From Emiliania huxleyi CCMP1516 (lineage: Eukaryota), in the NCBI RefSeq assembly GCF_000372725.1, contig NW_005201851.1:123953-187952 (forward strand): DNA of 64,000 nt, read 5' to 3'. Below the pieces are notes generated by a model. It had not been told where the DNA came from and searched no databases. It worked only from the letters and a program-made list of their open reading frames with translations. A program made the position numbers and the translations under genes. This document shows, in pieces, positions 24,208-59,456 of the stretch (its first letter is position 1; each line of letters opens with the position of its first letter).

Positions 24208-25677
24208 ATGTCCACCCTGCCGCGCCGCCGCTCGCGCCGCCTCGCCCCCGCCTCCACCGCCGCCGCCTCTTCAGACACGCCGCCGCCCGCCCGCCTCCTC
24301 GATCTCCCCACGGACCTCCTCCTGCGCGTCCTCTCCCGCTGCGACCCCGCCGACATCGCTCGCGTCGCGGCCGTCTCGCTGCTCTTTCACGCCTCGCTTG
24401 CGGTGGAGGCCATCCGCTTGTGGGCGCAAGAGCGCGGCTTCGAGCTGCCGGCGCTGCCAGTGGGCGAGAGCTGCGCCGTGCGGTGGCTGTGTCTCGCTGC
24501 GTTGCTGCGCGAGTCCAACCCGCCGGCGAGGGCGGCAGCAGGTGAGCATCACAGCCTCTTCATTGACGGCGAGGGGCGGCTCTCGTCGTGCGGCAAGATG
24601 TCCTGGATGTCAGGGCTGCTTGGCCACGGTGAGGGTGTGGCGCAGCTCAACACGCCGACCCGCCTCCCCTCGACGTTGGGCGACGAGCGCGCCGTGAGTG
24701 TGTCGGTTGGATACAGCCACAGCCTCGCCCTCACCGCCGCCGGCAGCGTCTGGAGCTGGGGCAGTGGACACGGTGGCAAGCTGGGCCACGGAGACCAGCA
24801 GGACCGGCCGCAGCCGAAGAAGGTTGAGGCCTTTGCGGGTCGGCGCGTCGTCGCCGTGTTGGCTGGTACCGCTCACAGCCTCGCCATCACCGCCGACGGA
24901 GCCGTCTGGAGCTGGGGCTATGGCTACAATGGCAAGCTGGGCCACGGCGACGAGCAGCACCAGCTGCTGCCAAAGAAGGTCGAGGCCTTGGCGGGGCAGC
25001 GTGTCGTCGCTGTGACGGCTGGAGACCACCACAGCCTCGCCCTCACCGCCGGCGGTGCAGTGTGGAGCTGGGGCTCGGGAGCCGATGGCCAGTTAGGCCA
25101 CGGCGACCGGCAGCGCCAGCTGCTGCCAAAGAAGTTCGAGGCGTTGGCTGGCCAGCGCTTCGTCGCTGTGTCGGCCGGAGGCACCCACTGCCTTGCCCTC
25201 ACTGCCGACGGAGCCTTCTGGAGCTGGGGCTATGGAGCCTATGGCCGGCTGGGCCACGGCGACACGCAGACCCAGCTGCTGCCAAAGAAGATCGTGGCGT
25301 TCGCAGGGCGGCGCATCGTCGCTTTGTCGGCTGGAGAGCACCACAGTATCGCCCTCACCGCCGACGGCGCCGTCTGGAGCTGGGGCTATGGACGCTTTGG
25401 CCAGCTGGGCCACGGCGACCAGCAGAACCAGCTGCTGCCAAAGAAGATCGAGGCCTTTGCTGGGCGGCGCGTCGTCGCTGTGTCGGCTGGAGCCGGGTTC
25501 GGCCTCGCCCTCACCGCCGACAGCGCCGTCTTTACCTGGGGCCAGGGCGACCACGCCTGCCTAGGCCACGGAGATGACCTGTCGGACCAGCTGCTGCCCA
25601 AGAAGATCGAGGCGTGGGGCGTGGTCGCCGGGGCTGTGAGGCGAAGGGCAGGTGATCCACCGTGCCCAGGGTCGTGA
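24208..25677 (+). CDS. F-box + RCC1-repeat beta-propeller protein, paralog 1, intronless
   Basis: LLDLPTDLLLRVLSRCDPADIARVAAVS F-box-like motif followed by 7 RCC1 repeats (VSAGxxHSLALTADGAVWSWGxGxxGxLGHGD). Confidence 0.9.
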   Translation: MSTLPRRRSRRLAPASTAAASSDTPPPARLLDLPTDLLLRVLSRCDPADIARVAAVSLLFHASLAVEAIRLWAQERGFELPALPVGESCAVRWLCLAALLRESNPPARAAAGEHHSLFIDGEGRLSSCGKMSWMSGLLGHGEGVAQLNTPTRLPSTLGDERAVSVSVGYSHSLALTAAGSVWSWGSGHGGKLGHGDQQDRPQPKKVEAFAGRRVVAVLAGTAHSLAITADGAVWSWGYGYNGKLGHGDEQHQLLPKKVEALAGQRVVAVTAGDHHSLALTAGGAVWSWGSGADGQLGHGDRQRQLLPKKFEALAGQRFVAVSAGGTHCLALTADGAFWSWGYGAYGRLGHGDTQTQLLPKKIVAFAGRRIVALSAGEHHSIALTADGAVWSWGYGRFGQLGHGDQQNQLLPKKIEAFAGRRVVAVSAGAGFGLALTADSAVFTWGQGDHACLGHGDDLSDQLLPKKIEAWGVVAGAVRRRAGDPPCPGS

Positions 25678-25771
25678 GAGGGAACCTTGAGAGGGAGCTT
25701 GGTTGTAAAATTCTTATTAATTCTAATTCTTGTAAAGTTCTAATTCTTTTTTATTAAATTCTTTTAAACGC

Positions 25772-26647
25772 GGTCGGAAGGGCGCTTTTGTCGCTTTCGG
25801 CAACACTGAATCATTATTTTGAAAGCCTGANNNNNNNNNNNNNNNNNNNNNNNNNNNNNNNNNNNNNNNNNNNNNNNNNNNNNNNNNNNNNNNNNNNNNN
25901 NNNNNNNNNNNNNNNNNNNNNNNNNNNNNNGGATAAACAGAGAGGAGAACCAGAGAGTGGAGTCCGGGAGAGGAAAGGATAGAGAAGGTGAGCAGGAGAG
26001 GAAGTAGAAGAGGGAGAAGGAGCAGGTCAGGTAGGAGTAAACGTGGAGGTCTTGGAATAGAAAAGAGTGGTACATATAACCTAATCATCAAAAGGGAGGG
26101 GGGTGGAGTAGTACGTCGGGGGCGGCATGGAGGGGGAGAGGAAGAGCAAGGGCGAGAGAGGGCAAGGGACCGGGCGCTGGCATACCAGGGGGGGCAGGGT
26201 GGTGGGCGGCGACCGCCGCATACCGTCCTACGGCGGGGACTATCGCTACGCCAGGGAAGACAAGGGCGTCGAAGTGCAGCTGCTGCTGTTCGAGTCGTTC
26301 GGCGGGTTCGCGAGGGGGGTCCGTGAGATCCTCCGGAAGGCGGCGGACGTGCTACAGAACAAGCTGACGCGGGCCCAGTACCTCGATGAGGCGACTTGGA
26401 CCACCAAGAGCTGGCTGGGGCTGCAGAGGCAGCGCATCTCAGTCGTTCTTCACACGGCCATCGCAGAGCAGGTCGTGAATGAGCTTGCCTGTGGGCTGTG
26501 GCGGGGGTGGGCGGGTGCACGGAGCTAAGTGCCTCGCCACCCTCGCAGGAGTCGCTTAGGCGGCTCCCGTGGTGTACCTGTGTTAGTGCCAGTGCGCGCC
26601 AGTCCCGTGCCCAGTGTTGTGCGAGGGAGTTTCCTTGTAAAATTCTT
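25772..26647 (+). mobile_element. Second copy of the RLE-type non-autonomous element (contains an N-gap)
   Basis: ORF 26127-26528 is nearly identical to the 14310-14725 translation; same 3' UTR ending ttgtaaaattctt. Confidence 0.7.
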
Positions 26648-26910
26648 CGCCCCGCCCGCCCGCCGCGCCGCGCCACCGCCCGGTGATTATTAATTATTAA
26701 TTACTTAATTTATAAATAATAATCGCCTTACCCACCGTCGCGCCGCCTCGCCCCTTCTTGCGTCGCCCGCTCCCTCACCGCGCCGCCGTCTCCCAGCGCA
26801 AATTCTTTCTCTCTATGAAAAAGAATTCAAGGTGCCAAATCTGAGTTTGGGCCATTACAATGGCCTGGGGCAAACCGCCTCCGCAGCCGGCGGCCGCCGT
26901 CGTGCCGAGC

Positions 26911-32376: not shown

Positions 32377-32424
<48 letters not shown>

Positions 32425-34435: not shown

Positions 34436-35527
34436 ATGACAGCACGCCTCAGCATCGAGACGCTCGTTGAGCGCGTCCGCGGCGGCACCACCACCCAGAA
34501 GAAGGATGCGGCAGACAAGCTGCGCGACCGAGCCGACGAGTGGGAGGCGATCATCCATGCTGGCGGCTTCCAGGCGCTCGTCGACCTTGCTCGCAATGGC
34601 AGCAACCGAGGGGTGGGGAGGGTGGCGGCGGCCGAAGCGCTGGAACGCCTTGCAGAGAAGGGCGCCTCCAGCACGATCGTCGAGGCTGACGGCGGCATCC
34701 AGGCGCTCGTCGACCTTACTAACGGCAGGCTGCCTCAAGCGGCCCGCGCTCTGGGCTACCTTGCAGAGAACGGCGCCGGGAGCAAGATCGTCGAGGCTGG
34801 CGGCATCGACGCGCTCGTCCACCTTGCTCGCGTCTTCACGGGGGACGGCGGTCATGACGTCGGATGGTCGGCCGCGTTGGCACTAAGCAAGCTTGCTCGC
34901 TTCGTCGAACTCGCAGAGAAGATCAAGGAGGCGGACGGCATTGGAGCGCTCGTCGCACTGGCACGCTGTGACTGGCACACGGAGAGAGAGATGGCAGCGT
35001 TGGCGCTGGGCAACCTGGCGTGCCACGGCCTCGTCTATTGCACGGCCATCAAGGAGGCCGACGGCTTCGATGCCCTGAACAGGCTTGCCGGCTATGGCGA
35101 CGGCCAAGCAAATGCGGCCGAGTACGCGCTGGGCATGATCAAGACGCACTATCTCGCCTCGGCCGACTGGGGCGCGTACCTGGCGCGCTACAACGACCTG
35201 ACCGAATGCCTCGCACTATCTCACCACGCGGCGCGCGACCACTTTATCAACCACGGCTTCAAGGAGGGCCGCGACGCTTCACCGGCAGCGTCGGATGAAT
35301 CGCAGCCGGCAAAGCGCTTGAAGGCTGAGGCGGAGGCAGAGGCTGAGGCAAATGCAGAGGCAGGGCAGTCAACCAAGCAGGACGCTGTCGGAGGGGCGTC
35401 GTCGTCCGGCGCGGGCGAGACCGATTTGGCGGAGGCGGAGGCGGAGGCGGAGCAGAAGAAGGCGGAGGCGGAGGCGAGCAGTCGTAGCATCGGCATCGGG
35501 CGCGCAGCAGATGAAGGCGAGGCTTGA
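34436..35527 (+). CDS. Armadillo-repeat protein with a C-terminal DWxxYLARYxDL...HFxxHGxxEGR motif
   Basis: About 5 ARM repeats (IVEAGGIDALVxLA...AAxALxxLA), intronless over this span. Confidence 0.8.
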   Translation: MTARLSIETLVERVRGGTTTQKKDAADKLRDRADEWEAIIHAGGFQALVDLARNGSNRGVGRVAAAEALERLAEKGASSTIVEADGGIQALVDLTNGRLPQAARALGYLAENGAGSKIVEAGGIDALVHLARVFTGDGGHDVGWSAALALSKLARFVELAEKIKEADGIGALVALARCDWHTEREMAALALGNLACHGLVYCTAIKEADGFDALNRLAGYGDGQANAAEYALGMIKTHYLASADWGAYLARYNDLTECLALSHHAARDHFINHGFKEGRDASPAASDESQPAKRLKAEAEAEAEANAEAGQSTKQDAVGGASSSGAGETDLAEAEAEAEQKKAEAEASSRSIGIGRAADEGEA

Positions 35528-37743: not shown

Positions 37744-39174
37744 TCAATCCCGCGACCACACCTCGATCTTCTTGGGCAGCAGCTGGTTCGACACGTCCCC
37801 TCCGTGGCCTAGGCAGCCGTAGCGGCCCTCGCCCCAGCTCCAGACAGCTCCGTCGGCGGTGGTGGCGAGATTGTACGCGAGCGCAGCAGACACAGCGACG
37901 ACGCGCTGCCCAGCAAAGGCCTCGACCTTCTTCGGCAGCAGCTGGCGCTGCCGGTCGCCGTGGCCCAGCTGGCCATCTTCGCCTAGGCCCCAGCTCCAGA
38001 CGGCGCCCTCGGCGGTGAGGGCGAGGCTGTGAAGACCTCCAGCCGCCACAGCGACGACGCGCTGGCCAGCCAAGGCCTCGATCTTCTTGGGCTGCCACTG
38101 GCGCTGCTCGTCGCCGTGGCCCAGCTTGCCAAAGGCTCCCCAGCCCCAGCTCCAGAAGGCGCCGTCGGCGGTGAGGGCGAGGCTGTAACCGCGCCCCGCC
38201 GACACAGTGACGACGTGCTGCCCTGCAAAGGCCTCGACCTTCTTCGGCAGCAGCCGGCTCTGCTGGTTTTGCTCGTCGCCGTGGCCCAGCTCGCCCAAGC
38301 CTCCACAACCCCAGCTCCAGACGGCGCCGTCGGCGGTGAGGGCGAGGATGTGGCCGCTTCCAGCCGACACAGCGACGACGCGCTGGTCAGCCAAAGCCTC
38401 GATCTTCTTCGGCAGCAGCTGGTCCTGCTCGTCGCCGTGGCCCAACTTGCCAGAGTTTCCATTGCCCCAGCTCCAGACAGCTCCGTCGGCGGTGATGGCG
38501 AGGCCGTGCATCTCTCCCGCCGACACAGCGACAACGCGCTGGCCAGCAAAGGTCTCAATCTTCTTCGGCAGCAGCTGGTCCTGAGTGTCGCCGTGGCCTA
38601 GCCGGCCAGAGCCTCCACTGCCCCAGCTCCAAACGGCGCCGCTGCCGGTGAGGGCGAGGCTGTGGAATGCTCCAACCGACACGCTCACGACGCGCTCACC
38701 GCTCAGCGTCGACGTTAGGCGGGTCGGCGTGTTGAGCCGCGTCACGCCATCGCCGTGGCCGAGTACTCCCGGCGTCCAGCTCTCAGCCGAGCCGCACGAC
38801 GAGAGCCGCCCCTGGCCGTCGATGAAGAGGCTGTGCTGAAAGCTTGCCGCCACCCTCGCCGGCGGGTTGGACTCGGACAGCAGCGCAGCGAAGCACAGCC
38901 ACCGCACGGCGCAGACCTCGCCCTCTGGCAGCGCCGGCAGCTCGAAGCCGCGCTCTTGCGCCCACAAGCGGATGGCCTCCACCGCAAGCGAGGCGTGAAA
39001 GAGCAGCGAGACGGCCGCGACGCGAGCGATGTTGGCGGGGTCGCAGCGAGAGAGGGCGCGCACGAGGAGCTCCGTGGGAAGGTCGAGGAGGCGGGCGGGC
39101 GGCGGCGTGTCTGGCGAGCGGGCGGTGGAGACGGAGGCGAGGCGGCGCGAGCGGCGGCGCGGTGGGGTGGACAT
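37744..39174 (-). CDS. F-box + RCC1-repeat protein, paralog 2
   Basis: Same N-terminal F-box-like motif and 7 RCC1 repeats, 476 aa. Confidence 0.9.
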   Translation of the reverse strand: MSTPPRRRSRRLASVSTARSPDTPPPARLLDLPTELLVRALSRCDPANIARVAAVSLLFHASLAVEAIRLWAQERGFELPALPEGEVCAVRWLCFAALLSESNPPARVAASFQHSLFIDGQGRLSSCGSAESWTPGVLGHGDGVTRLNTPTRLTSTLSGERVVSVSVGAFHSLALTGSGAVWSWGSGGSGRLGHGDTQDQLLPKKIETFAGQRVVAVSAGEMHGLAITADGAVWSWGNGNSGKLGHGDEQDQLLPKKIEALADQRVVAVSAGSGHILALTADGAVWSWGCGGLGELGHGDEQNQQSRLLPKKVEAFAGQHVVTVSAGRGYSLALTADGAFWSWGWGAFGKLGHGDEQRQWQPKKIEALAGQRVVAVAAGGLHSLALTAEGAVWSWGLGEDGQLGHGDRQRQLLPKKVEAFAGQRVVAVSAALAYNLATTADGAVWSWGEGRYGCLGHGGDVSNQLLPKKIEVWSRD

Positions 39175-39557
39175 CGCGAGAAAAAGAAAATTTGTGAGAA
39201 AAAGAATTCAAACGCGATGTCGTGCGAGAAAAAGAAATTCGCGCGGGCTCGAGAATTTACTTATCGATGCCCGCCGCCGTTCGGAACGCCGGCGTGGAGC
39301 CTTGTTCGCAGCCGGGGTCCCTGGCGCCCTTCCCCTTGAGTCTTCATGAGAGCCTCGCCTGCGCGCAACGTGCTTGATGCGTTTCGCCGTCTCGAGTCCC
39401 GAGGCCCGAGTCGCGTTGGTGAGAGCTTTTCCGCTAGTACCACGCAGCCCGACTCACACAGGCTCGGGCAGAGGTGGAGCCCCACAATTGTTAATGTGCA
39501 AAAGGGTCAAGGCCGCGTCCACACGATACCGTCCCCGCGACCTCTCAATCGGCATTG

Positions 39558-40660
39558 TCAATCCCGCGACCACACCTCGATCTTCTTGGGCAGCAGCTGG
39601 CGCGATAGGTCCTCTCCGTGGCCTAGGCAGCTGCCGTCGCCCCCGCCCCAGGCAAAGATGGCGCCGTCAGTGGTGATGGCGAGCCTTTGCTCGACTCCCA
39701 CCGACGTAGCGACGACGCGCCGCCCCGTCAACGCCTCAATCTTCTTCGGCTGCAGCTGGTTCTGCTGATCGCCGTGGCCCAACCGACCGTTGCCACCGCG
39801 GCCCCAGCTCCAGACGGCGCCGTCGGCAGTGATGGCGAGGCTGTGGGCGTCTCCAGCCGACACAGCGACGACGCGCTGGCCAGCCAAGGCCTCGATCTTC
39901 TTGGGCAGCAGCTGGTCCTGCTCGTCGCCGTGGCCCAGCTTGCCATCTTCGCCAAGGCCCCAGCTCCAGGCGGCTCCGTTGGCGGTGAGGGCGAGGCAGT
40001 GCCCGACTCCAGCCGACACTGCGACGACGCACCGACCTGCAAAGGCCTCGACCTTCTTGGGCAGCGGCTGGTCCTGCTGGTCGCCGTGGCCCAACATGCC
40101 CCAGTATCCACCGCCCCAGCTCCAGACGCTGCCGTCGGCGGTGATGGCGAGGCTGTGAAAACCTCCAGCCGACACGGCAACGACGCGCTGGCCAGCAACG
40201 GTTGCCACCTCCGTGGGCAGCAGCTGGCTCTGCTCGTCGCCATGGCCCAATCGACCAAAGCCTCCCCGGCCCCAGCTCCAGACAGCTCCGTCGGCGGTGA
40301 GGGCGAGGCTGTGCTGCCACCCAGCCGACACGGAGACGACGCGCAATTTAGCAAACCCCTCGATCTTCTTGGGTTGCCACTCGTGCAGCTCGACGCCATG
40401 GCCCAACAGGCCGTGGCGTCCACTGCCCCAGCTCCAGACAGCGCCGTCGGCGGTGAGGGCGAGGCTGTGGCCGGTTCCAACCGACACGCTCATGGCGCGC
40501 TCGCCGCCCAGCGTCGACGGGAGGCGGGTCGGCGTGTTGAGCCGCGTCACGCCCTCGCCGTGGCCGAGAAGGACTGGGTTGTAGAACGGCGAAGAAAGCA
40601 GCCCTCCTGAGAAGTATGTGCTACCCGCAATCACAAGGGCCCTCGCCGCGGCGGGCGGCC
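39558..40660 (-). pseudogene. RCC1-repeat paralog 3, 5'-truncated (no F-box)
   Basis: Open RCC1 repeats with the same C-terminus (KIEVWSRD) and 3' flank as paralog 2. The N-terminus is replaced by unrelated DNA, including a diverged RLE-element 3' UTR at ~40733-40815. Confidence 0.7.
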
Positions 40661-41188
40661 CGCGTGCAGACAGCTTGCGGCTGTTTGCGTCACCATGGTC
40701 GCCCCCGCGTGACACTTCCGTTTTTCTTTCGGTGCTAAGTGCATTGCCGCTCTTAACGGAGTCGCTTAGGCGGCTCCGGTGGTGTGCCGGTGATAGTACT
40801 AGCACGCGCCAGTTCGCACCTGTGTCGAGCCTAAGAAAACAGACACGCCAAACGAGGGATGGGACGAGGACAGGGTCCCCACCTGCACGAGCAGGATTTT
40901 GGAAGGACGATCAGGGGGACAGGTGGGGCTCTCCTGCTCCTGACAAGGGACACGACAGGCTCGCAGCGCGGTGCGCGGTGGACTCCCACATCCACTGGCG
41001 GTCTCATCTCAGTCTAGCGACCTGCCTCCAGCTTGTCGCTGGCAGTCTCTCCTACCACAGGCACACTGACACAGGGGTGGCAGGGGCGGCGGCACGAGTC
41101 TCCCACATACTATGCGGGCCTCACTAGAGGTGCGGCCTGTGCGTGTCCTCGCCCTTGAGGGGGGAGGGGAAGGGGCTGTGTGTCTGTG

Positions 41189-41191
<3 letters not shown>

Positions 41192-41277
<86 letters not shown>

Positions 41278-41292
41278 GTGCGTGTGCGTGTG
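41192..41292. repeat. (GT)n microsatellite
   Basis: Direct reading. Others: (CA)n 54175-54326, (GA)n 46621-46678, (CT)n 63653-63697. Confidence 0.95.
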
Positions 41293-42093
41293 CGAGCCGC
41301 CCTGAACGCCACGAGCGCGCCGCGAGCGCCATAGCGCCGGCGAGCGCCGTCGGACCGCCACCCAAAAGTGGAGGTACATTAGGAGCCGCAGCCGGCCTGC
41401 TCTATCAGCCCCGCAGCCGCGGTGGCGCGACCGGACCGCGGTCGCTCCAGGCGCCTTTTGGCCCCGGTTCGAATCGCGGTTGGCGCGCGCCCTCGCGGAG
41501 CGACGCGTGGCGCGCGACGCGCGCGCGTGCGCGTGCGCGCCCAGCCGAGCCCTAGGCCGTATGCCGTCTGCCGTCTGCCGTCTGCCGTCGGCCGTCGGCC
41601 GTCGGCCGTCGGCCGTCGGCCGCCGCCGCCGCCGTAGCGGCGGCGAGCGCTCGCCTTTTGCGCGACGCGCAGTGTGGACGCGCGCCGCCCAGCGCCGGAC
41701 GTGCCGGAGCCGGTCCGGCGCGCGCGCGGGCGGCCAGCGCCTGTAAACAGACAGCTGCCGCCCACACGTCGAGCCTGTCTGCTGCGGGTTTAAATTCTTT
41801 CGGCAGCACGTGTTGGCGTGACGCTGTGTGTGTCGCTCACGCTCGAGGAGCGATTCCGCTTCGGCTCCGGGCGCTTCGACGACATCAATGGCTTGTACGT
41901 GGACGACGCCGTCCCGAGCTGTACGTGAACGACTGGGCAGCGCCAGACGGCGAGGACTTTTAAAGAAAGAAAGAAAGAAAACAGACAACCCAAGGGAGGG
42001 ATGGGAGGAGACATCCTGAGCGAACTCGAGGCCGCAATTTTTCTTTCGGCAGCACGTTGGCGTGACGCTGCCGCCGGCGTTGGCAAGCCCGCG

Positions 42094-45000
42094 ATGTGGT
42101 CGCTCACGCTCGGTGCGGCGCTCGCCAACGTCGGCTGCTCCGTCTCGCTAGTGCTCGTCAACAAGGCTCCGGAAGATACAGCCCCGGCCTGACCCTTCCC
42201 GCTCCACCTCCGCCGCCATCCGCCGTCCTCCGCCGCCAGCCGCGAAGCCGTGGCACACCTCCGACCCCGCAGGCGGTCTTCTCGGCTGGCTTCAACTTCC
42301 CCATGTCGCTCACCTTCCTCCACTTTGCCTTTACCGTCGCGTTCTACCGCCTGCTCGCAGCGTGCGGCGCCTTTGAGCCTCAGTCGCTGCCGCACGCAGA
42401 GGCGTTCAAGGTTGCCGGGTTTGGCGTCGGAAGCATCGGCTTCATGAACATCTCGCTCCACCTCAACTCGGTCGGCTTCTACCAGATCACGAAGCTCGCC
42501 ATAGTGCCGTGCACGCTGCTCGCACAGGCACCTTTTTAAGCCCTCGCCAGCCGCCTCTCGGCCGCACCTCGGCCGCACCTCGGCCGCCCACCTCGACGGC
42601 CTCTCGGCTCCACCTCGCGCAGGCGCTCCTGCACGACGTGCACGCCTCGCGCCGTGTGAAGCTCTCGCTCCTCCTCCTCCTCCTCGGCCTCGCCGTCGCC
42701 ACCGTCTCGGACGTGAGACACTTCCTAGACACTTCCTAGACGCGTCCTAGACACCGTCTCGGACGTGAGACACTTCCTAGACACTTCCTAGACGCGTCCT
42801 AGACACCGTCTCGGACGTGAGACACTTCCTAGACACTTCCTAGACGCGTCCTAGACACCGTCTCGGACGTGAGACACTTCCTAGACACTTCCTAGACGCG
42901 TCCTAGACACCGTCTCGGACGTGAGACACTTCCTAGACACTTCCTAGACGCGTCCTAGACACCGTCTCGGACGTGAGACACTTCCTAGACACTTCCTAGA
43001 CGCGTCCTAGACACCGTCTCGGACGTGTGCAGCTCCCCCTAGAAGCGAGTGTGCATTCTTGCTCCTCAGCGCAATCTCGTCTTCCGCCCGCTGACGTCGG
43101 GTGTACTCAGCACGCAGGTCCAGCTCAATGCGCCCGGCCTCGTCCTCGGCTTGCTCGCCGTCGCCACCACCACAATCTTCCAGATCTGGCAAGGCTCCAA
43201 GCAAAAGGCGACACTTCCTAGACACTCCCTAGACACTTCCTAGACACCACCGTCTTCCAGATCTGGCAAGGCTCCAAGCAAACGGTGCTCGAGCTGCCTC
43301 GCCACGCCGCCGTGTCGGCCGGCTGATTCTTTCTTTTCATCCATCCGTCGTCAGTCGTAGGAGCTCGAGCTGTCCGCGACGCAGCTGCAGGCGGCCGTCG
43401 CCAGCAGTGGCGGCGTCACCTCTCCACCGCTTTGCATCGCCTCACAGCCTTTTCTTTCACAGGCGGCCGTGGCGATTTGGCAGGTGCCGCAGGCGGTCGC
43501 TCGCCCGCTTGTTCACAGCTCGAGGTGTGAAGAGACGCTGTTCACAGGTGCCGCAGGCGCTCGCGGCGGCGATTGCGCTGGAGAACCTCTGCGCAGGCCC
43601 GCCTCGCCTTGAGAGATTGCACGAGATTGCACGAGATTGCACGAGATTGCACGAGATTGCACGAGATTGCACGAGGTTGAGCAGCGATGTGTGCAGCCGC
43701 TTCAGAGGCCCGGCCATACGAACTGCTGTCTGTGGCGATGCCTCTCCCTGAGAACGCACACACCGCCTCGTGTGGTCACGCCCCGTGTATCCCGCGAGTG
43801 CGTGTGCCCCGTCGCCCGGTGCGAGGGACGTGTCACACACACACACTCACTGATGACGGACTGGCTGACTGAGAGGAGGCCGTGCTCAAGGGCTCCCCCC
43901 TGGACGAGTGTGTGATGAGTGGCTCGCGTCTTGAAGGGGCGTACGGCCTGGCTCCCTAGTACGGACGCACGTGACCCCGCCCACACCTCTGCGCAGGTTT
44001 GCCTCCCGCACTCCGCTCGGAGGAGCCAGGAGAGTGCCGGACGGCGGTCGGGTTCGCCCAGCAAGCCGCGAACGGCGGCGGCGGCGACGGGGGCGGCGGC
44101 GCGCGCACACTGGCGCTGGTGGTGCTGACCTGCTTCGTCGCCCTTGGGACGAACGTCTCCTCGTTTTGCCTCATCGGCCGCACGTCGGCAATCACCTTCC
44201 AGGTGGTCGGGCGACCTGCCTCGTATCTCCGCACGTCTCCCTCGCATCTCTCCGGAATTCTCCGCCCCCAAGGATTCGGTACTTAGGCGGCGGGGGATCT
44301 GGATTCGGTACTTTAGGTGGTCGGGCATGCCAAGACCTGCCTCGTCCTCGCGGGCGGGTTTTTGCTCTGGCCTCCCGCGGACACGTCGCACTTGCCCACG
44401 CAGCTCGTCGGCGTCTCCGTCGCCGTCCTCGGCTGCGTCCTCTATTTCTTTTTTAACCTGTGTTTCTTTTTTAGGCGTCTCGGTCGCCGTCCTCGGCTGC
44501 GTGCTCTACGGCCATCTCAAGCTGAGCGAGGCTACCGGCCGGAGAGACTTGTGCGACCGCCTCTGCCCCGCGCCGCTGCTGTGGGTCGCGACAGACCCCC
44601 CGCCGAGGTTCGAGATACAACCCGAGATACAGCCGAGATGCAGCTGGAGATACAGCCGAGATGCAGCCCGAGATACAGCCCGAGATACAGCCGAGATACA
44701 GCCCGAGATACAGCCGAGACACAGCGGGGATGCAGCCGAGATGCAGCCGATCTAGCCGAGATCCGGACGAGATCCTGCCGAGCTCCTGCCGAGCTCCTGC
44801 CGAGGCCCAGCTCGCATACAGCCGAGGTACGTACAGCCGCGGCTGCACCACCCCGTCCACACCTCCCCCCGCGAATCAGGTACGAGCCGCTGCCTGCGTC
44901 GGGGGAGCTCATCCCGGCGGCGGAGCTGTCCGCGTCGGACGCCAAGGTGGCTTAATTATTCATGATTAATTAATAGCAATCTTAGTTCATTCAGCGGACC

Positions 45001-46635: not shown

Positions 46636-46679
<44 letters not shown>

Positions 46680-49003: not shown

Positions 49004-49029
49004 ACAGCGACGGCGATTGCGAACCCGCC

Positions 49030-50917: not shown

Positions 50918-51683
50918 ACAATTGATATTCGCCCGACTACCGTCGCCGCCGCCGCCGTCGCCTAGCCCGTCGCCACGGATCCAGCCGCCACCGTTGCCTC
51001 CCTCTCACCACTGCCTCTCTCGCCACCGCCCGCCCTCGCCGCCACCCGCCCCGCCGCCGGGGCCTCACTACCGCCTCCTCTGCGCCGTCTCCCACGCCGC
51101 CGCCGCCTGCTTCGCCCCCGCCCGCCTCGCCGTCGCCCTCGTCGCCACTGCCGCCGCCGTCGCTGTCGTCGCCAGTGCCACCGGACCGCCGCATCACCAC
51201 ATACTGGGGGGCGGCGGGGCGCGGGGGCGACTGGGTCCGCCTCGCTCCGCCCTTTTCCCGCCACGGCCCTCGTCACCAAGCTGTCAAGTCACCGCCGCCG
51301 ACCCAGCAACGCCTACCCCGGGGGCCACCGCCAGGCCAGCTGACTCCCTCACCGCCGACTCAATCGCCTCCAGCGCTAGCCCGGGGCTCCTGCCGTCATC
51401 CGCGCCGCTGCCCGGGGCTCCGCTGTCGCCCTCGCCGCTGCTAGGTAGCTTCACGCAGTCGCTGCTCCGCCCGCTCGTCGCTAGCTTCGCGCCGAGAGCC
51501 ACCGCGTGGCAGCGAAGGGATGGTTCAGGCCGCGGCGGTGCGACAGGGCGGCCGCGTTGGCGGGGGTGGACTCAGCGGTGTTGGCCAGGGATGGTGACGG
51601 CAATGGTGGCAATGTCTCAGGACACGGCAGTGGCGGTGACGGTCGGGACGGGTTCGGCTGCTGCAGCGGCGCGAAGTCGGTCG

Positions 51684-52114
51684 TTAGGGTTAGGGTTAGG
51701 GTTCGGGTTAGGGTTAGCTCAAGGTTAGGGTTAGCTTTCCGGCACTGGCCATGGCTACCGCGCGCTAGGCCATGGCCTCGGCCGTCACGGCCACACTCGA
51801 GGATGGCTCCGATCAACATGGACCATGGCTGAGCCGCCGCTCAGCCACCACGCCACATGGCCGGGCCGTACAGCCAAACGGAGGGCCATGGCTGCAGCCG
51901 ATCGCCGGCGTATGGCCTGATGGCCCAGCCATGGCCACGCCGGGCAAGCCGGCTCCGCCATGGCTAAGCCGACGATTGAGCCATCGGGCCATACACACAG
52001 GGATCGGCCGTAGCCATGGCCTCCGAGTGGCCAGATTGACACGCCCCTGCCGCGTCTCGGCCATGGCGCGGAGCATCGCCTAGCCACCCCGGCCATATGG
52101 TTCGGAGGCGCTGT
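51684..52114. repeat. (TTAGGG)n tract followed by CCATGG-rich satellite-related sequence
   Basis: ttagggttagggttaggg at ~51684-51733; 51925-52114 is a diverged copy of the 189-bp unit. Confidence 0.75.
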
Positions 52115-52214
52115 NNNNNNNNNNNNNNNNNNNNNNNNNNNNNNNNNNNNNNNNNNNNNNNNNNNNNNNNNNNNNNNNNNNNNNNNNNNNNNNNNNNNNN
52201 NNNNNNNNNNNNNN

Positions 52215-52987
52215 TGTCGGCTGGACGCTTCCACAGCCTCGCTATCTCCGCCGACGGACCCTTCTGGAGCTGGGGTGGTGGAGCCTTTGGCCAGCTGGGC
52301 CACGGCGACCAGCAGGGCCAGCTGCTTCCAAAGAAGGTCGAGGCCTTCGCTGGGCGGCGCATCGTCGCTGTGTCGGCTGGAGAGCACCACAGTATCGCCC
52401 TCACCGCCGACGGCGCCGTCTGGAGCTGGGGCTGGGGAGCCTATGGCCGGTTGGGCCACGGCGACGAGCAGGGTCAGCCGCTGCCCAAGAAGATCGAGGC
52501 CTTTGCTGGCCGGCGCATATTAGCTGTGACGGCTGGAGACGCGCACAGCCTCGCCCTCACCGCCGATGGCGCCGTCTGGAGCTGGGGCGATGGATACGGC
52601 GGCAAGCTGGGCCACGGCGACGGGCAGAACCAGCTGCTGCCCAAGAAGATCGAGGCCTTGGCTGGCCCGCGCGTCGTCGCTGTGTCGGCCGGAGGCAACC
52701 ACAACCTCGCCCTTACCGCCAACGGTAGTGTCTGGAGCTGGGGCTGGGGAGCCGGCGGCCAGTTGGGCCACGGCGACGAGCAGACGCAGCTGCTGCCCAA
52801 GAAGGTCGAGGGTTTTGCTGGCGAGCGCGTCGCCGCTGTGTCGGCTGGAGAGTACCACAGCATCGCCATCGCCGACGGCGCCGTCTTCACCTGGGGCGGG
52901 GGCGACGGCGGCTGCCTAGGCCACGGAGAGGACCTGTCGAAGCAGCTGCTGCCCAAGAAGGTCGAGGCGTGGTCGTTGGGGCCATAG
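52215..52987 (+). CDS. RCC1-repeat paralog 4, 5' end lost in a gap
   Basis: Five RCC1 repeats with the family C-terminus (GHGEDLSKQLLPKKVEAW). Confidence 0.8.
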
Positions 52988-53141
52988 CGTGTGTATGCCC
53001 GGAGACACGCTGAAAGAAAGAAATAAAGAAAGAAAACAGACACCCCAAGGGAGGATGTTTTTCTTTTTTGCTACGGCTTGCTGGTGCGCCCGTTCGTAGG
53101 AGCTATATTCCGCCGCCCCGCACATTCCTCTGGGCAGCAGC

Positions 53142-53558: not shown

Positions 53559-53891
53559 CCACGTCTCTTTCCAAGTAGCACTCGTACTCCGCTGCTTCAG
53601 CAGTACGCGCAGTACGATGTGCTGCACGACACGTGTATCCACACCCCGACATTGCATTCACACCGTGGGAGCGGGACGCCCGCTCGGCCCATATCTCCCC
53701 CACATCTCCTCATAGGAGCGGGATGCCCGCCTCGCGCGCACGCTTCAGAGCGAGGCGGACGCAGAGCTGGCGGCCAAGCTTGCCGAGAGCCTGCAGGCGG
53801 CCGGCTGCTGGAGAGCGAAGGCCGCTGCTGTGAATGGCGTCTCTTCACGCTCGCGTGGCTGCCAGCAGGCGGAGCTCATCATCGAGGAGCA

Positions 53892-53941
<50 letters not shown>

Positions 53942-54691: not shown

Positions 54692-55595
54692 CCTCTCCGC
54701 CATGGCTAAGTCGATGATTGAGCCATCGGGCCATAGCCGGCGATCGGCCATAGCCATGGCCAGATTTTGCACACGCCCTCTGCCGCGCTCGGCCATGGCG
54801 CGGCGCCTAGCCATATGGTTCGGAGGCGCTGCAGCCATGGCCACGCCCGGCAAGCCGGGAGTCGCGAGACCACGCCCACACCTCTCCGCCATGGCTAAGC
54901 CGATGATTGAGCCATCGGGCCATAGCCGGCGATCGGCCATAGCCATGGCCAGATTTTGCACACGCCCTCTGCCGCGCTCGGCCATGGCGCGGCGCCTAGC
55001 CATATGGTTCGGAGGCGCTGCAGCCATGGCCACGCCCGGCAAGCCGGGAGTCGCGAGACCACGCCCACACCTCTCCGCCATGGCTAAGCCGATGATTGAG
55101 CCATCGGGCCATAGCCGGCGATCGGCCATAGCCATGGCCAGATTTTGCACACGCCCTCTGCCGCGCTCGGCCATGGCGCGGCGCCTAGCCATATGGTTCG
55201 GAGGCGCTGCAGCCATGGCCACGCCCGGCAAGCCGGGAGTCGCGAGACCACGCCCACACCTCTCCGCCATGGCTAAGCCGATGATTGAGCCATCGGGCCA
55301 TAGCCGGCGATCGGCCATAGCCATGGCCAGATTTTGCACACGCCCTCTGCCGCGCTCGGCCATGGCGCGGCGCCTAGCCATATGGTTCGGAGGCGCTGCA
55401 GCCATGGCCACGCCCGGCAAGCCGGGAGTCGCGAGACCGCGCCCACACCTCTCCGCCATGGCTAAGCCGATGATTGAGCCATCGGGCCATAGCCGGCGAT
55501 CGGCCATAGCCATGGCCAGATTTTGCACACGCCCTCTGCCGCGCTCGGCCATGCCCATGGCGCGGCACAGCGCCTAGCCCCCACGGCCATATGGT
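54692..55595. repeat. 189-bp tandem satellite rich in GCCATGGC palindromes, at least 4.6 near-identical copies
   Basis: Unit starts at 54692, 54881, 55070, 55259 and 55448. Confidence 0.95.
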
Positions 55596-55838
55596 TCGTT
55601 GCATTAGGGTTCATTAGGGTCTCAGCATATGTGGGGAGGAGACCCTCTTGAACAAAACTATTCAACTCAGCGAAAACCTTTTGGTACACGTGATGCGCGG
55701 GACACTCGTCTCGCGACCGCGCCCCGCTCCGCCCGCGGGTAAGCCGACGATCGAGCCAGCAGGCCATGCGTCGGTGACTGGTACGGAAGGAGAGAAGCGG
55801 CTAGCACAGCATAGATGCTCTTGGCAGTGAAGAAAAAA

Positions 55839-56561
55839 CTAGCAGTGCTGAACAACGGAAATCTGTGGCAACCACAGGTCTTCCGGTTCATGAGCAAACC
55901 TCACCAACACTGACGACGAGTCCTCATCAACGCGTTCAACCAGGCCGGTCTTGCCCAGAACACCCCGCACAGTAGGCCAAGGGGTTGAAGGGACGGAGTC
56001 AATCATGACCTTTAACCGTGAGAAACCTACTCTAGCGGCGGTGCACGTGACAACGTCGCCTTCGCTTGGAGCCCAGCCGCTGCTGATGTCACCGCGCTCT
56101 CCAAAAGATGCGAGTTGCTCGATCACATACTGCGCGTCACGCCTGCCATCGTCTGCCATTCGAACCAGCTGTATGTGCAACTGAAGCTGTGCAATTTGCA
56201 AATTTTCGTCACTGTTGCCAGTAAAGGCGCGAGCAAGTAGGTCGTTCATGTCGGCGCGATTGGCTGCATTGGTGGTGCTCGCTTGCAGCTTGCGACGCAA
56301 CCAATCTCTGGTGTCCATGACACTGAAGACCCTCCACTGTTGTCCGAGCCCAACCAGATGTTGCACTGTGTTTGCAATAGTGTGGAGTGGAGTCACCGAC
56401 TTGTCGGACAACAGAAGACCAGTGACCGGGCTGGTGTCGTTTGCTCTCAGCCATCGCTCGATCGCTTCACGCTCGTAGACATGACCGTCGCGGGTCATTA
56501 CTGGCTCCAAGAACAGCTGATGGGTGATAGGACAGGAAAGCTCGCGCGCGACCTGGTCCAT
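55839..56561 (-). CDS. U-box E3 ligase-like protein with a C-terminal Mind-bomb-type SH3-like repeat
   Basis: LSCPITHQLFLEPV..DGHVYEREAIERWL..TSPVT U-box; GDVV...W...LGKTGLV...VLVRF...W.P C-terminal module. Confidence 0.8.
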   Translation of the reverse strand: MDQVARELSCPITHQLFLEPVMTRDGHVYEREAIERWLRANDTSPVTGLLLSDKSVTPLHTIANTVQHLVGLGQQWRVFSVMDTRDWLRRKLQASTTNAANRADMNDLLARAFTGNSDENLQIAQLQLHIQLVRMADDGRRDAQYVIEQLASFGERGDISSGWAPSEGDVVTCTAARVGFSRLKVMIDSVPSTPWPTVRGVLGKTGLVERVDEDSSSVLVRFAHEPEDLWLPQISVVQHC

Positions 56562-56658
56562 TTCCAGTGTCTGGCTCTTTTCCGGCCCGAGCCGGCACCG
56601 TATAAGTTTTGACTGTCGTAGGTATATTGTTTTGACTGGACATAAATGAAAAACTAGA

Positions 56659-56975
56659 GAGCTACCCCTCGGCGGGTGGTGCAACGCGGTCAAGCGGCTG
56701 TTCTACCAGATGAAGGACAAGGTGCTCTCGAAGCGGCAGCACGAGGACGAGGCGAGCTGGTCGACGCGGTCGTGGCTGTCGCTGCAGGCCCAGCGCATGT
56801 CAGTCGCGCTGCAGCTCGCGGCGGCGGAAGAGATTGCGACCGAGCTCAGGCTCACCGCGGCGTCGGAGGACGCCGCCGTCGCCTAGACTCCCCTGCGTCA
56901 CTACGTGCCTCCCCGTCTTTGTAGCCTGGCGTTTGTGCCCCGTCTGTGCCGCGTCCTGTACCCTCGAGTTCATTT
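56659..56975 (+). mobile_element. 3' end of a second RLE-type non-LTR subfamily
   Basis: Encodes GGWCNAVKRLF...EDEASWSTRSWLSLQAQRMSVALQ (stop 56886), homologous to DEATWTTKSWLGLQRQRISVVLH. Its 3' UTR recurs at ~47853-47989. Confidence 0.65.
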
Positions 56976-58049
56976 TATAAAAGACGGGACTGGCGCGCAC
57001 TGGCACTAACACAGGTACACCACTAAAAAGAGAAAGCGGACAGCGAACAAGAATTTTACAACAAAAAAAGTAAAGAGCTACATACACTGGAAAAAAGAGT
57101 CCTCCTTCTGGAATCGTCAGAGCCACACATTGAAAAAGAAACACCCGGCGCAAGTCGGACGTCCCCGCTTGCGTCCCACATATGGCCGGTCAAGGCACTT
57201 TGGAGACGGGCTGTACGCGGCACACGAGCCGAGCTGGGACGAGCGCGAGTTCTGGTACGACTTTTTCACCGAGCACCCGCTGCCCCCTTACTGGCCACGC
57301 AAGTGCCTCAAGCTTGTCGGTACCGCATCGCCTCCGCCCTTGACACATCGATCGCCCCCCCCCCCCCCCCTCCCCTCCTCACCCCGGCCGTCCAACTATG
57401 CTTGTAGTTGGAGCCGCCTCCCTTTTGGGCATTGAGGGCGAGGAGGACCCCGGCGAGCAGCTCCCGGCTTGGAAGCGCGCCCGCCAGCACTTCGGCCTCG
57501 CTTACGAAGAGCGCTTCAACGCATGGGCGGCCGACGCAAGCGGCTCTGGTGATGGCCAAGAGGCCTTCTCCGACATTGCGTGGAAGGTGGCGGGCGCCAC
57601 CTTCGCTCGCCGCCGTGCGGAGATATCGACGCTCTTCAGCGGCATTCCAAGCTGGGCGGTTGAGGAGTACAGGCTGGCAGCGGGCCCGGTGGCGGCGGTG
57701 TAGAACCATCGGCCGATATGACCATCGGCCGCATGGCTGAACCATCTGTGGATTGGCCATGGCTAAAAACTGAGCTGGCTGTGGCCAAAATCTGGCAGAG
57801 ATGGCCAGACTCAGCAACTATGGCTGAACTCGAGCCTGTGTGGCCGACGAGGTGTTGTTGTGGCCATGCATGGCTGAGAGAGGTGTCCACATGGCCGAGA
57901 GGCAGCGTTGATGGCCGGATCGGAGAGGTGTGGCCGAGGCCATCGCGCCCATGGCCACAACGTGCCACCAGCCATGGCCCACGCCTCCTGTGTGTGTCTG
58001 AGCCATGGCTTTAGGGTATTATTAACACGGAAAAATTCTTTTTCTCGCG

Positions 58050-59456
58050 ATGTCTGCCCCTTCGCGCCGCTCGCGCCGCCTCGCATCCTCCGCCGCCGCC
58101 GCCGCTCTCTCGCCAGACACGCCGCCGCCCACCCGCCTCCTCGACCTCCCCACGGACCTCCTCGTGCGCGTCGTCTCTCGCTGCGACCCCGCCGACATCG
58201 CTCGCGTCGCGGCCGTCTCGCTCCTCTTCCACGCCTCGCTTGCGGTGGAGGGCATCCGCTTGTGGGCGCAAGAGCGCGGCTTCGAGCTGCCGGCGCAGCC
58301 AGAGGGCGAGGGCGCCGTGCGGTGGCTGTGCTATTCGGCGCTGCTGCGCGAGTCCAGCCCGCCGGCGAGGGCGGCGGCAGGCCAGTATCACAGCCTCTTC
58401 ATCGACGGCGAGGGGCGGCTCTCGTCGTGCGGCTCGGAGGAGCGACACCCAGCCCTGCTCGGGCACGGCGAGGGCGTGGCGCGGCTCAACACGCCGACCC
58501 TCCTCCCCTCCCCGCTGGGAGGTGAGCACGCCGTGAGCGTGTCGGCTGCAACCGGGCACAGCCTCGCCCTCGCCGCCGACGGCTCTGTCTGGAGCTGGGG
58601 CCAGGGAGGCTTTGGCCAGCTGGGCCACGGCGACGAGCGGAACCAGCTGCTGCCGAAGAAGATCGAGGCCTTTGCTGGCTACCGCGTCGTCGCTGTGTCG
58701 GCTGAATGCGTCCACAGCCTCGCCCTCACCGCTGATGGCAGCGTCTGGAGCTGGGGCTATGGAGCCCTTGGCCGGTTGGGCCACGGCGAAACGCACCAGC
58801 AGGACCAGCTGCTGCCCAAGAAGATGGAGGCCTTTGCTGGCTACCGCGTCGTCGCTGTCTCGGCTGGGTACGACCACAGCCTGGCCATCGCCGCCGACGG
58901 CTCCGTCTGGAGCTGGGGCTATGGAGGCTTTGGCCAGCTGGGCCACGGCGGCACGCACCAGCAGCTGCTGCCCAAGAAGGTCGAGGCCTTTGCTGGGCGG
59001 CGCGTCGTCGCTGTGTCGGCTGGGACCGCTCACAGCCTCGCCATCACCGCTGACGGCGCCGTCTGGAGCTGGGGCTCGGGAGGTTTTGGCAAGCTGGGCC
59101 ACGGCGACACGCACCAGCAGCTGCTGCCGAAGAAGGTCGAGGCCTTTGCTGGCCAGCGCGTCGTCGCTGTCTGGGCTGGATCAATGCATTGCCTCGCCAT
59201 CACCGCCGACGGCGCCGTCTGGAGCTGGGGCTGGGGAATGTTCGGCATGTTGGGCCACGGCGACACGCGGACCCAGCTGCTGCCCAAGAAGGTGGAGGCC
59301 TTGGCTGGCGGGCGCGTCGTTGCTGTGTCGGCTGGAGCCGAGCACAGCATCGCTCTCGCCGCCGACGGCGCCGTCTTTACGTGGGGCAAGGGCGATTGCA
59401 GCCGCCTAGGCCACGGAGAGGACATGTCGAACCAGCTGCTGCCCAAGAAGATTTAG
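58050..59456 (+). CDS. F-box + RCC1-repeat protein, paralog 5
   Basis: F-box-like motif plus 7 RCC1 repeats; a GAG>TAG change trims the last few residues relative to paralogs. Confidence 0.9.
   Translation: MSAPSRRSRRLASSAAAAALSPDTPPPTRLLDLPTDLLVRVVSRCDPADIARVAAVSLLFHASLAVEGIRLWAQERGFELPAQPEGEGAVRWLCYSALLRESSPPARAAAGQYHSLFIDGEGRLSSCGSEERHPALLGHGEGVARLNTPTLLPSPLGGEHAVSVSAATGHSLALAADGSVWSWGQGGFGQLGHGDERNQLLPKKIEAFAGYRVVAVSAECVHSLALTADGSVWSWGYGALGRLGHGETHQQDQLLPKKMEAFAGYRVVAVSAGYDHSLAIAADGSVWSWGYGGFGQLGHGGTHQQLLPKKVEAFAGRRVVAVSAGTAHSLAITADGAVWSWGSGGFGKLGHGDTHQQLLPKKVEAFAGQRVVAVWAGSMHCLAITADGAVWSWGWGMFGMLGHGDTRTQLLPKKVEALAGGRVVAVSAGAEHSIALAADGAVFTWGKGDCSRLGHGEDMSNQLLPKKI

Follow-up and report, generated by a model that had tools for sequence, protein, structure and literature searches.

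A germline family of predicted F-box and RCC1-like propeller proteins with hypervariable blade codons in Emiliania huxleyi

Related recognition families and the five loci

Judged by analogy of design, the closest analogue of the gene family described here is the HNWD WD40 family of Podospora anserina, whose HNWD/NWD members (het-d, het-e, and paralogs) carry conserved WD40 repeats under diversifying selection according to PMC1805685, while other fungal NLRs contain highly internally conserved WD40, ANK, or TPR repeats according to PMC4986451. The propeller repeats of HNWD-type families and of the present one are alike in being very similar within and between paralogs and in lacking positional identity, in carrying a few positively selected codons per repeat on the interaction surface (here by UVR8 homology), and in belonging to multigene families with pseudogenes. 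HNWD proteins, however, combine WD40 repeats with NACHT and a death effector, whereas those studied here combine an RCC1-like propeller with a predicted F-box in a haptophyte-type alga; eight codons vary per 52-residue blade here and four per WD repeat in HNWD; and the blade number is mostly fixed, unlike the repeat-number polymorphism of HNWD. Taken over whole blades, amino-acid identity is 72%, and for the framework alone it is 83%, both below the threshold of 85% applied to fungal NLRs (PMC4986451).

Nematodes and plants likewise possess large, lineage-specific families in which the F-box is conserved while the substrate-binding domain evolves fast, and which are proposed receptors for pathogen proteins. 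These expanded substrate-receptor families are said to evolve adaptively, reportedly from work by Thomas in 2006, and they use FBA, FTH, LRR, or kelch domains, whereas the present family uses near-identical propeller cassettes with defined variable codons. The same two-domain architecture of F-box and RCC1 repeats is found in chordate FBXO24; in the Atlas, 99% of the members of the cluster “F-box only protein 24” have RCC1 and 98% have F-box-like (feature score 0.93). FBXO24, however, is one conserved gene and is not known to form an expanded, hypervariable family. UVR8 and the HERC2 RLDs have the same seven-blade propeller and the same loops as partner-binding face, but UVR8 lacks an F-box and the family described here lacks a HECT domain. 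In Fbw7/Cdc4-type and Fbs-type proteins, an F-box and a helical linker precede a WD40 or sugar-binding domain, in place of which the present proteins have an RCC1-like propeller.

A tblastn search of the window, by which we mean the whole 64-kb stretch of DNA analysed, revealed five paralog loci (g1–g5) and no further ones. The first-pass annotation had counted five intronless paralogs, and each locus is indeed one uninterrupted ORF, but only g1, g2, and g5 are full-length. g1 (24208..25677, plus strand; 489 aa), defined by ORF, Pfam, and tblastn, has a 7-nt insertion near its 3′ end that gives an altered, longer C-terminal tail. g2 (37744..39174, minus strand; 476 aa), supported by the same three lines, is the canonical full-length copy on which alignments and models were based. 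g3 (39558..40640, minus strand; tblastn) lies in tandem to g2 and is 5′-truncated, lacking the first 128 residues; since its homology begins at g2 residue 129, it possesses neither the F-box nor the first blade. g4 (52215..52987, plus strand; Pfam, tblastn) is the 3′ part of a paralog comprising the last five blades, whose 5′ part is lost in a 100-N assembly gap at 52115-52214. g5 (58050..59456, plus strand; 468 aa; ORF, Pfam, tblastn) has its stop codon 6-7 codons ahead of the usual family end. Imperfect copies are common in the window, with a defect in each of g1, g3, g4, and g5, which weighs against the reading favoured below, and a frame change or in-frame stop was found in 21 of 80 metagenome loci, part of which may be assembly errors; chimeric metagenome contigs are also possible for a repeat family.

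By blastn boundaries and upstream alignment, homology between paralogs is confined to the CDS and a pyrimidine-rich conserved leader of ~17 nt. The alignment of nine upstream regions, three from the window and six from metagenome loci, places this leader directly 5′ of the g1 ATG (24191..24207, plus strand) and likewise before g2 (39175-39191, minus strand) and g5 (58033-58049). Nine of the ten 3′-flank pairs are unalignable, and g2 and g3 have a decayed 3′ flank in common (69% identity over 121 aligned columns; alignment score 43 vs a shuffle maximum of 31). Retroposition was rejected as the duplication mechanism because the homology ends at the stop codon and the 3′ UTR is not in common.

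Propeller fold, variable face, and N-terminal module

The RCC1-like propeller that had been recognised from the letters of the sequence is borne out by Pfam, sequence, and fold matches, which agree with one another. PF00415 matched the five loci with E values from 4e-96 to 3e-74 over 5-7 stretches, and PF25390 scored 283-468 bits in all five (cut-off 150). Tandem RCC1 repeats and a superposable fold, the two marks of an RLD seven-bladed propeller, were both found. The g2 model has a pLDDT mostly >90 over propeller residues 108-470, and Foldseek placed UVR8 first (TM 0.94), followed by the HERC2 RLD (0.87) and RCC1 (0.79-0.82); UVR8 was also the best sequence match (1.7e-94). Blade positions 11-12 vary most within the family (3.5-3.6 bits) and correspond in the alignment to the W/R of the UVR8 GWRHT motifs, as position 28 does to W302-type residues; all of these are interface residues according to PMC7455749. 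The proposal that the variable codons occupy the binding face is therefore in line with their alignment to the dimer/partner interface residues of UVR8, and both variable loops are predicted to lie on one face, a placement based on blade topology and the UVR8 alignment rather than on measured coordinates. The tryptophan triad of the GWRHT motifs and the interface arginines are not retained, and the family proteins are not UVR8 orthologues because the aligned positions are hypervariable.

The N-terminal module is, with moderate strength, predicted from sequence and modelling to be an F-box, as had also been suggested from the sequence on the strength of its motif, and Pfam matches and fold likeness both point that way. 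g1 exceeds the cut-offs with F-box-like (24.9 bits, cut-off 24.3; aa 31-63, 24298..24396, plus strand) and F-box (22.8 bits, cut-off 20.5), in addition to seven RCC1 matches, whereas the F-box-like scores of g2 (19.8 bits; aa 30-62, 38989..39087, minus strand) and g5 (23.2 bits) fall just under 24.3. Such borderline scores in single proteins would suit the alternative that the module is no working F-box and that the proteins are RCC1-like binders outside SCF ligases, with a helical domain peculiar to the family and a role, e.g., as scaffolds or GEF-like regulators, and so would the search of PDB sequences with the family N-terminal profile, in which no F-box chain was matched. Against this stand the matches of PF12937 to 23 of 23 family N-termini (best 1.2e-7) and of PF00646 to 20 of 23, at E ≤ 0.1, and the fact that Pfam F-box was found in 9 of 27 distant matches of the N-terminal profile, above cut-off in 6 of them and with up to 46.9 bits. 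Residues L32, P33, L36, and L37, which we take to correspond to the F-box core LPxELL, are invariant in the 23 N-termini and conserved at ≥90% in 52 sequences, the most distant of which have 31% identity. BurrH repeat matches of the profile in the PDB (E 0.004-0.009) were judged spurious.

Structural comparison bears on both sides of the question. In the g2 model, helices are predicted at 34-41, 46-56, and 63-74, with a linker helix at 89-102, and the N-terminal model has a pLDDT of 83. The five best rows of VIA-align were all chains of Skp1-F-box complexes (Fbs1, FBG3, FBXO31, Fbs2, and FBXL2), whose F-box and linker superpose on model residues 28-103 with Z of 6.5-5.2, a range that the tool rates as common for helical domains, and Fbw7 superposes with Z 3.8; overall, the similarity is moderate. 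Foldseek returned no match at E ≤ 0.001 for the N-terminal model, although its top three were Fbw7, and in the Atlas the N-terminus pointed no more than weakly (0.80) to F-box clusters. This weak to moderate fold similarity, together with a pN/pS of ~0.8 in the module, a value that one would not expect of a docking domain under constraint, leaves some room for a non-F-box function, but given the near-invariant core leucines and proline, the match of every N-terminus to F-box-like, and the Skp1-bound chains at the top of the structural comparison, we regard it as distinctly improbable. In the reading as an F-box, the module would dock on Skp1 and the variable propeller face would bind substrates.

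Hypervariable codons on a homogeneous scaffold

Blades b1-b6 are repeated 156-nt (52-aa) units, which TRF recovered as 156-nt arrays with 76-82% matches. Six anchors were counted in 31 of 63 proteins, and seven only in P0001 and P0002. Among the 29 blades of g1–g5, entropy exceeds 2.2 bits at positions 2, 11, 12, 28, 30, 31, 33, 39, and 41 and is ≤1.6 bits at the remaining 43, and in 70 family proteins the hypervariable set consists of positions 11, 12, 28, 30, 31, 33, 39, and 41 (2.1-3.6 bits), every position outside it being ≤1.4 bits. The distribution is bimodal in both samples, so that variation is not spread evenly over the blade but confined to eight or nine positions; the hypervariable codons sit in the loop that follows the “VSAG” strand and in the long loop after “WSWG.” The dipeptides and xGxx strings quoted by the first-pass annotation are all present in the compiled blade list, and only one of 100,000 random five-position subsets matches the summed entropy of its five positions. 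Its two variable windows both fall within the eight-codon set, but by entropy there are three windows.

The four inner blades b2-b5 are interchangeable and without positional identity. Framework identity among them is 83% in protein and ~87% in DNA, equally so in same-index, different-index, and within-gene comparisons: the distance is 0.125 for the same index between genes, 0.125 for different indices between genes, and 0.123 within a gene, or 0.132, 0.131, and 0.129 when only window genes are used. To call the framework “nearly identical in DNA” was thus an overstatement, as inner-blade codons differ at 12.5-13% of bases. Unusually long shared tracts were found in only 3 of 946 pairs, all three in the conserved C-terminus, and no gene pairs of intermediate age were found. 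We infer that the scaffold was homogenised by exchange between copies or is the product of a duplication burst.

Selection was assessed in disjoint pairwise gene comparisons that set pN of the hypervariable codons against pS of the framework. In 22 such pairs, framework pS was 0.209 and framework pN 0.092, whereas hypervariable pN reached 0.558. The resulting ratio of hypervariable pN to framework pS is 2.68 (bootstrap 2.41-2.93), with the same direction in 22/22 pairs, and 4.2 after Jukes-Cantor correction; the contrast is built on framework silent sites, and should exchange between copies have homogenised these sites, or should they be under constraint, the ratio would be no plain omega. In an independent test, positions set from the window were applied to 19 metagenome-only pairs, and the ratio was 2.91 with the five positions named earlier and 2.41 with nine positions, in 19/19 pairs. 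At those five positions pN was 0.615 against a framework pS of 0.212, in keeping with the diversifying selection that had been postulated, and a control within the codon, in which the third base is kept at codon 28, agrees.

Values of this kind could also arise by neutral drift on an old family, if the variable loops were unconstrained while the framework and its silent sites were held by purifying selection and codon bias. The loops are the least conserved part of any RCC1 repeat; the flanking DNA of the paralogs is unalignable, and therefore the copies could be old; and a hypervariable pN of 0.56-0.62 is close to saturation, so that the rate is not directly readable from it. The silent sites themselves argue against such drift. 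Synonymous codon choice depends on blade position (chi-square p <1e-70 for G, L, A, V, and S), as exemplified by glycine, which is encoded by GGA in 195 of 230 cases at position 10 and by GGC in 253 of 258 at position 35, and it is this position-specific choice that indicates unsaturated silent sites. Non-preferred position-specific codons (GGA, GCT, NNT) are kept in 75-90% of the ~230-260 blade copies. At hypervariable codon 28, the third base of NNY codons is T in 105 of 116 cases, across D, Y, S, N, F, C, and H, although bases 1-2 are randomised, whereas 1534 of 1764 NNY codons in the framework end in C, as do 107 of 117 at position 12 and 155 of 160 at position 41; neutrality predicts that T-to-C changes towards the preferred codon would be at least as frequent. 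A CpG-context effect behind the T-ending codons was ruled out because most framework codons preceding G are still C-ending. With no stop codon among 2033 hypervariable codons in addition, neutral drift seems very unlikely, and we infer instead that diversifying selection acting on point mutations keeps the variation, which it would do on a homogenised or burst-derived scaffold. Recently copied blades were sought among ~32,000 blade pairs and none was found, the closest pairs (1.5-6% framework divergence) having ~1-1.5 of 8 hypervariable residues in common against a background of 1.06; as the low-divergence tail is at chance level, blade pairs provide no rate calibration.

Extent of the family, possible partners, and significance

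At least 174 database proteins possess the N-terminal module, and Emiliania huxleyi is their only named source. Our search of the full-text literature found no description of the family, though the expansion may be mentioned in the genome paper of E. huxleyi or its supplements, and for EhV and F-box together it returned no more than a single F-box homologue named in passing. At g2/g3 and g5, poly(A) RNA reads map strand-specifically and follow gene orientation (library strandedness being uncalibrated), and reads at 99% likeness cover the unique 3′ flank of g5 at 59425-59700. These reads support expression, but they show it only in part for single loci, because they cross-map between paralogs: of the reads at g2/g3, 1035 of 1396 fall on the stretch with only part of their length, as do 169 of 180 at g5; the gene bodies are patchily covered, and in the search for g2-specific expression one bin had zero depth. 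All the variation seen is between germline paralogs in assemblies; the data thus show a germline multigene family, and a somatic diversification resembling that of antibodies or VLRs, to which the family had been likened, is without support.

Taken together, we favour, with moderate confidence, the view that these genes form a germline family of F-box and seven-bladed RCC1-like proteins in which eight codons per blade change their amino acid ~2.7 times faster than silent sites change, and that the products are predicted SCF-type substrate receptors for fast-evolving partners. Such partners would most likely be viral, parasite, or selfish-element proteins. A more far-reaching proposal, which we put forward only tentatively, is that a germline library of well over 100 SCF receptors, built from interchangeable blade cassettes with ~50 positively selected surface residues per protein, serves as a ubiquitin-based intracellular immune repertoire against giant viruses or parasites with which it co-evolves in the ocean. 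The family might instead be real and diversifying but directed at endogenous partners, in self/non-self recognition, mating-type or gamete recognition, or selfish-element conflict rather than virus defence. Allorecognition is the role of the closest evolutionary analogue, Podospora HNWD, according to PMC1805685. Moreover, a scan of viral contigs with two N-terminal peptide patterns matched 34 stretches, of which none was confirmed as a viral relative or link, and the data identify no partner. The same data, however, do not discriminate between kinds of partner. E. huxleyi lives under heavy coccolithovirus pressure, and expanded F-box families have reportedly been tied to intracellular pathogen responses in a nematode study, so that we consider purely endogenous partners rather unlikely.

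A frozen repeat framework with a few selected codons is a recurrent design of recognition repertoires, as in the repeats of fungal NLRs, and lamprey VLRs and TALE repeats are further examples. The predicted SCF-type receptors would add to this design a version that joins an RCC1 propeller to an F-box, and would do so in a marine alga of global importance, the blooms of which giant viruses bring to an end. The family also amounts to a natural “designed” library of binders, each a very stable propeller on which ~50 surface positions vary. Should its partners be viral, the family would be a candidate innate immune system of haptophytes and would offer concrete loci for the study of the arms race between marine hosts and their viruses.

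Paralogs in the window and their surroundings

Exactly five related loci were found in the window by tblastn with three full-length proteins as queries, and each contains a continuous open reading frame: g1 (24208-25677, plus strand, 489 aa), g2 (37744-39174, minus strand, 476 aa), g3 (39558-40640, minus strand), g4 (52215-52987, plus strand), and g5 (58050-59456, plus strand, 468 aa). Homology in g3 begins at residue 129 of g2, the reference for alignments and models, so that neither the F-box nor the first blade is present in g3. A gap of 100 N (52115-52214), one of the five assembly gaps in this window of about 65% GC, interrupts g4; g5 stops 6-7 codons too soon, and a 7-nt insertion gives g1 a changed tail. 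Strong Pfam matches to RCC1 or RCC1-like domains were obtained for all five loci, and F-box-like matches for the three copies with an N-terminus; only the g1 match exceeds the cut-off, those of g2 and g5 falling slightly short of it. Independently, TRF detected in each gene an array with a period of 156 nt and 76-82% matches.

Unrelated open reading frames adjoin the paralogs, which are therefore interspersed among other genes rather than arranged in a pure tandem array. No kinship to the F-box-RCC1 family was seen for those encoding an AP2-domain protein (11987-14383, minus strand), an Armadillo-repeat protein (34436-35527, plus strand), or a product whose MMACHC-like match is weak and falls below the cut-off (7525-8451, plus strand). 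Between g4 and g5 lies a frame for a U-box domain (PF04564, E 3e-11; 55839-56693, minus strand), which is another type of ubiquitin-ligase domain. The window also contains repeats. A 189-nt tandem repeat (54692-55553; 4.6 copies, 99% identity) contains CCATGG-rich frames open in both strands, and a CCATGG-rich stretch close upstream of the gap that truncates g4 (51740-52100) resembles it by eye. TTAGGG-like repeats of telomere type form an interstitial run upstream of g4 (51680-51735), related arrays of 11-nt microsatellite units (AGACACTTCCT, for example, and complements) occur at 1529-1681, 8439-8996, 20319-20463, and 42700-43027, and a long (AC)n-type microsatellite, whose translation reads "THTHTH...", lies upstream of the truncated g3 (40640-41300, minus strand).

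Hypervariable blade positions and evidence for selection on them

The first-pass annotation had pointed to two windows that change in almost every blade, the residues after VSAG and the xGxx after WSWG, which correspond to blade positions 11-12 and 28/30/31. When 29 blades of 52 residues each were cut from the five window genes, Shannon entropy was bimodal, with positions 2, 11, 12, 28, 30, 31, 33, 39, and 41 at 2.3-3.5 bits and the other 43 at 1.6 or below, and the summed entropy of those five annotated positions was matched by 1 of 100,000 random five-position subsets. The hypervariability is real and far beyond chance. As an independent check, 70 database proteins of the family were aligned and entropy was taken per column: positions 11, 12, 28, 30, and 31 gave 3.0-3.6 bits, position 41 gave 2.9, position 39 gave 2.5, and position 33 gave 2.1, with the rest at 1.4 or below; the first blade in these proteins is degenerate and has variable patches of its own. 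The protein identity of inner blades (blades 2-5) was 72%, which divides into 83% for the framework and 14% for the eight variable positions (11, 12, 28, 30, 31, 33, 39, and 41).

A metagenome scan provided 80 loci with 35-80% identity to g2, 79 of them at 62-80% and one at 35%, and a codon alignment was made of 46 genes with at least five blade anchors, from which two duplicates of the same gene were later removed. The 1035 gene pairs form a star-like pattern, all similar and with none of intermediate age, and their median values were 0.242 for framework pS (silent divergence), 0.092 for framework pN (amino acid-changing divergence), and 0.525 for hypervariable pN. Among 22 disjoint pairs, hypervariable pN was 0.558 against a framework pS of 0.209, a ratio of 2.68 (bootstrap 2.41-2.93; 4.2 after Jukes-Cantor correction), and the direction was the same in all 22. 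To guard against circularity, positions set from the window were tested on 19 metagenome-only pairs, which gave ratios of 2.91 for the five annotated positions and 2.41 for nine positions, with the same direction in 19 of 19 pairs each time.

Silent sites are unsaturated, because synonymous codon choice varies with blade position (chi-square p <1e-70 for five amino acids). Glycine is encoded by GGA at positions 10 (195/230) and 29 (185/258) and by GGC elsewhere, and alanine by GCT at positions 9 and 52 and by GCC at positions 16 and 19. The sharpest control comes from within hypervariable codon 28, which carries T as the third base in 105 of 116 NNY codons, over seven amino acids, and NNY codons end in C at position 12 (107/117), at position 41 (155/160), and in the framework (1534/1764). 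Sequence context was ruled out as the cause of the T endings since framework codons before G mostly end in C. At codon 28, therefore, repeated replacement of the first two bases contrasts with near-constancy of the mostly silent third, a pattern that fits selection for amino acid change via point mutation. Local hypermutation, cassette replacement, and neutral decay do not fit this pattern. No stop codon occurred in 2033 hypervariable codons. The excess of hypervariable pN over framework pS and the codon-28 control give good support to the diversifying selection that the first-pass annotation had proposed, here on a delimited, predicted binding face.

Propeller fold and putative F-box module

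The model of g2 is confident across the propeller, and UVR8 is its top match both by sequence (1.7e-94) and by fold (TM 0.94), followed by the RCC1-like domains of HERC2; the family is not orthologous to UVR8. In the residue alignment, blade positions 11-12 align with the W and R of the UVR8 GWRHT motifs, position 28 with the second W of the WGW motifs, and W26, which is invariant, with the buried ring tryptophans. In UVR8, the dimer interface includes W233, W285, W337, W94, W198, W250, and W302, and residues of the W300 type lie in the sheets (PMC7455749). From the topology of the blade, the first-strand loop and the long third-strand loop would share one face.

The F-box of the first-pass annotation, located here in the N-terminal module (F-box and linker), holds at moderate strength. 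Among 23 aligned N-termini, F-box-like was matched in all 23 and F-box in 20, and the core residues L32, P33, L36, and L37 (LPxELL) are invariant in these and near-invariant in 52 sequences with identity down to 31%. When 1.84 billion representatives were searched with a profile, 88 proteins were returned, and of 27 distant relatives scanned, nine had a Pfam F-box at the site of the match, six of them above the cut-off, with RCC1 repeats too in most. On a deeper alignment, the N-terminal model reached a pLDDT of 83 with helices at 34-41, 46-56, 63-74, and 89-102. Its five top matches in VIA-align were Fbs1, FBG3, FBXO31, Fbs2, and FBXL2, all chains of Skp1 complexes, with Z scores of 6.5-5.2 that are moderate for helical domains. 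Foldseek gave no matches to the model at E ≤ 0.001, its top three, which miss that threshold, being Fbw7, and a search of PDB sequences with the family profile matched no F-box. The module is thus a moderately supported, putative F-box, as judged from sequence and modeling. Across 44 genes, pS in this module (g2 codons 26-108, aligned columns) was 0.117, about half the 0.209 of the propeller framework, and its pN/pS was about 0.8.

Family evolution, transcription, and known counterparts

Nucleotide distances in the inner-blade framework were 0.125 between genes at the same blade index, 0.125 between genes at different indices, and 0.123 within a gene (0.132, 0.131, and 0.129 for the window genes alone), while blades 1 and 6 retain their own identity. 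Homology between paralogs extends from a conserved, roughly 17-nt leader right before the ATG to the stop codon, and 3′ flanks could not be aligned in 9 of 10 pairs, the sole exception being the tandem g2/g3 (69% identity over 121 columns). These facts are consistent with homogenization limited to the coding sequence in the style of concerted evolution. Long shared tracts exceeded the null of a permutation test in only 3 of 946 pairs, all three in the conserved C-terminus, and blades most alike in framework had no more variable residues in common than background; the scaffold may reflect either a burst of duplication or concerted evolution. Frame changes or in-frame stops in 21 of the 80 metagenome loci, about a quarter, suggest birth-and-death turnover or assembly error. 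In two metagenome paralogs (L036:645-720 and L053:903-960), a 20-30-nt insertion, palindromic-looking by eye, lies between the leader ATG and the usual second codon and introduces a second ATG.

A database search with the whole protein returned 3149 proteins at E ≤ 0.001, other RCC1 proteins included, and the N-terminal module alone matched 174, with RCC1 domains in all that have recorded domains. Emiliania huxleyi CCMP1516 was the sole named source, and no database protein exceeded 77% overall identity to g2. Leads from the Atlas were haptophyte F-box/RCC1 clusters and chordate FBXO24 as a protein of the same architecture. In one family protein (P0105, 719 aa), the F-box is preceded by about 270 additional N-terminal residues, which include a pair of similar repeats, each about 125 residues long.

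The family is transcribed. First mates of poly(A) RNA reads lie almost only on the coding strand of g2/g3 (minus) and g5 (plus) in a library of uncalibrated strandedness. Since most reads sit only partly on the loci (1035/1396 at g2/g3 and 169/180 at g5), they are largely derived from paralogs and do not single out expression of g2. The unique 3′ flank of g5 is covered by reads at 99% likeness, with none upstream of its ATG, and g5 or an allele of it is probably transcribed as well.

A literature search for the family, outside the genome publication of E. huxleyi and its supplementary files, returned nothing relevant. An antiviral role of the family is a conjecture, as is a somatic mechanism of diversification. 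The same evolutionary pattern is described for Podospora HNWD and other fungal NLR repeats of high internal conservation (PMC1805685; PMC4986451). Expanded F-box receptor families would be the counterpart of the biochemical role predicted here, and FBXO24 is identical in domain architecture. Unlike these systems, the present family combines the RCC1 fold, the putative F-box, and a haptophyte host, with eight variable codons in each blade and a mostly fixed number of blades.
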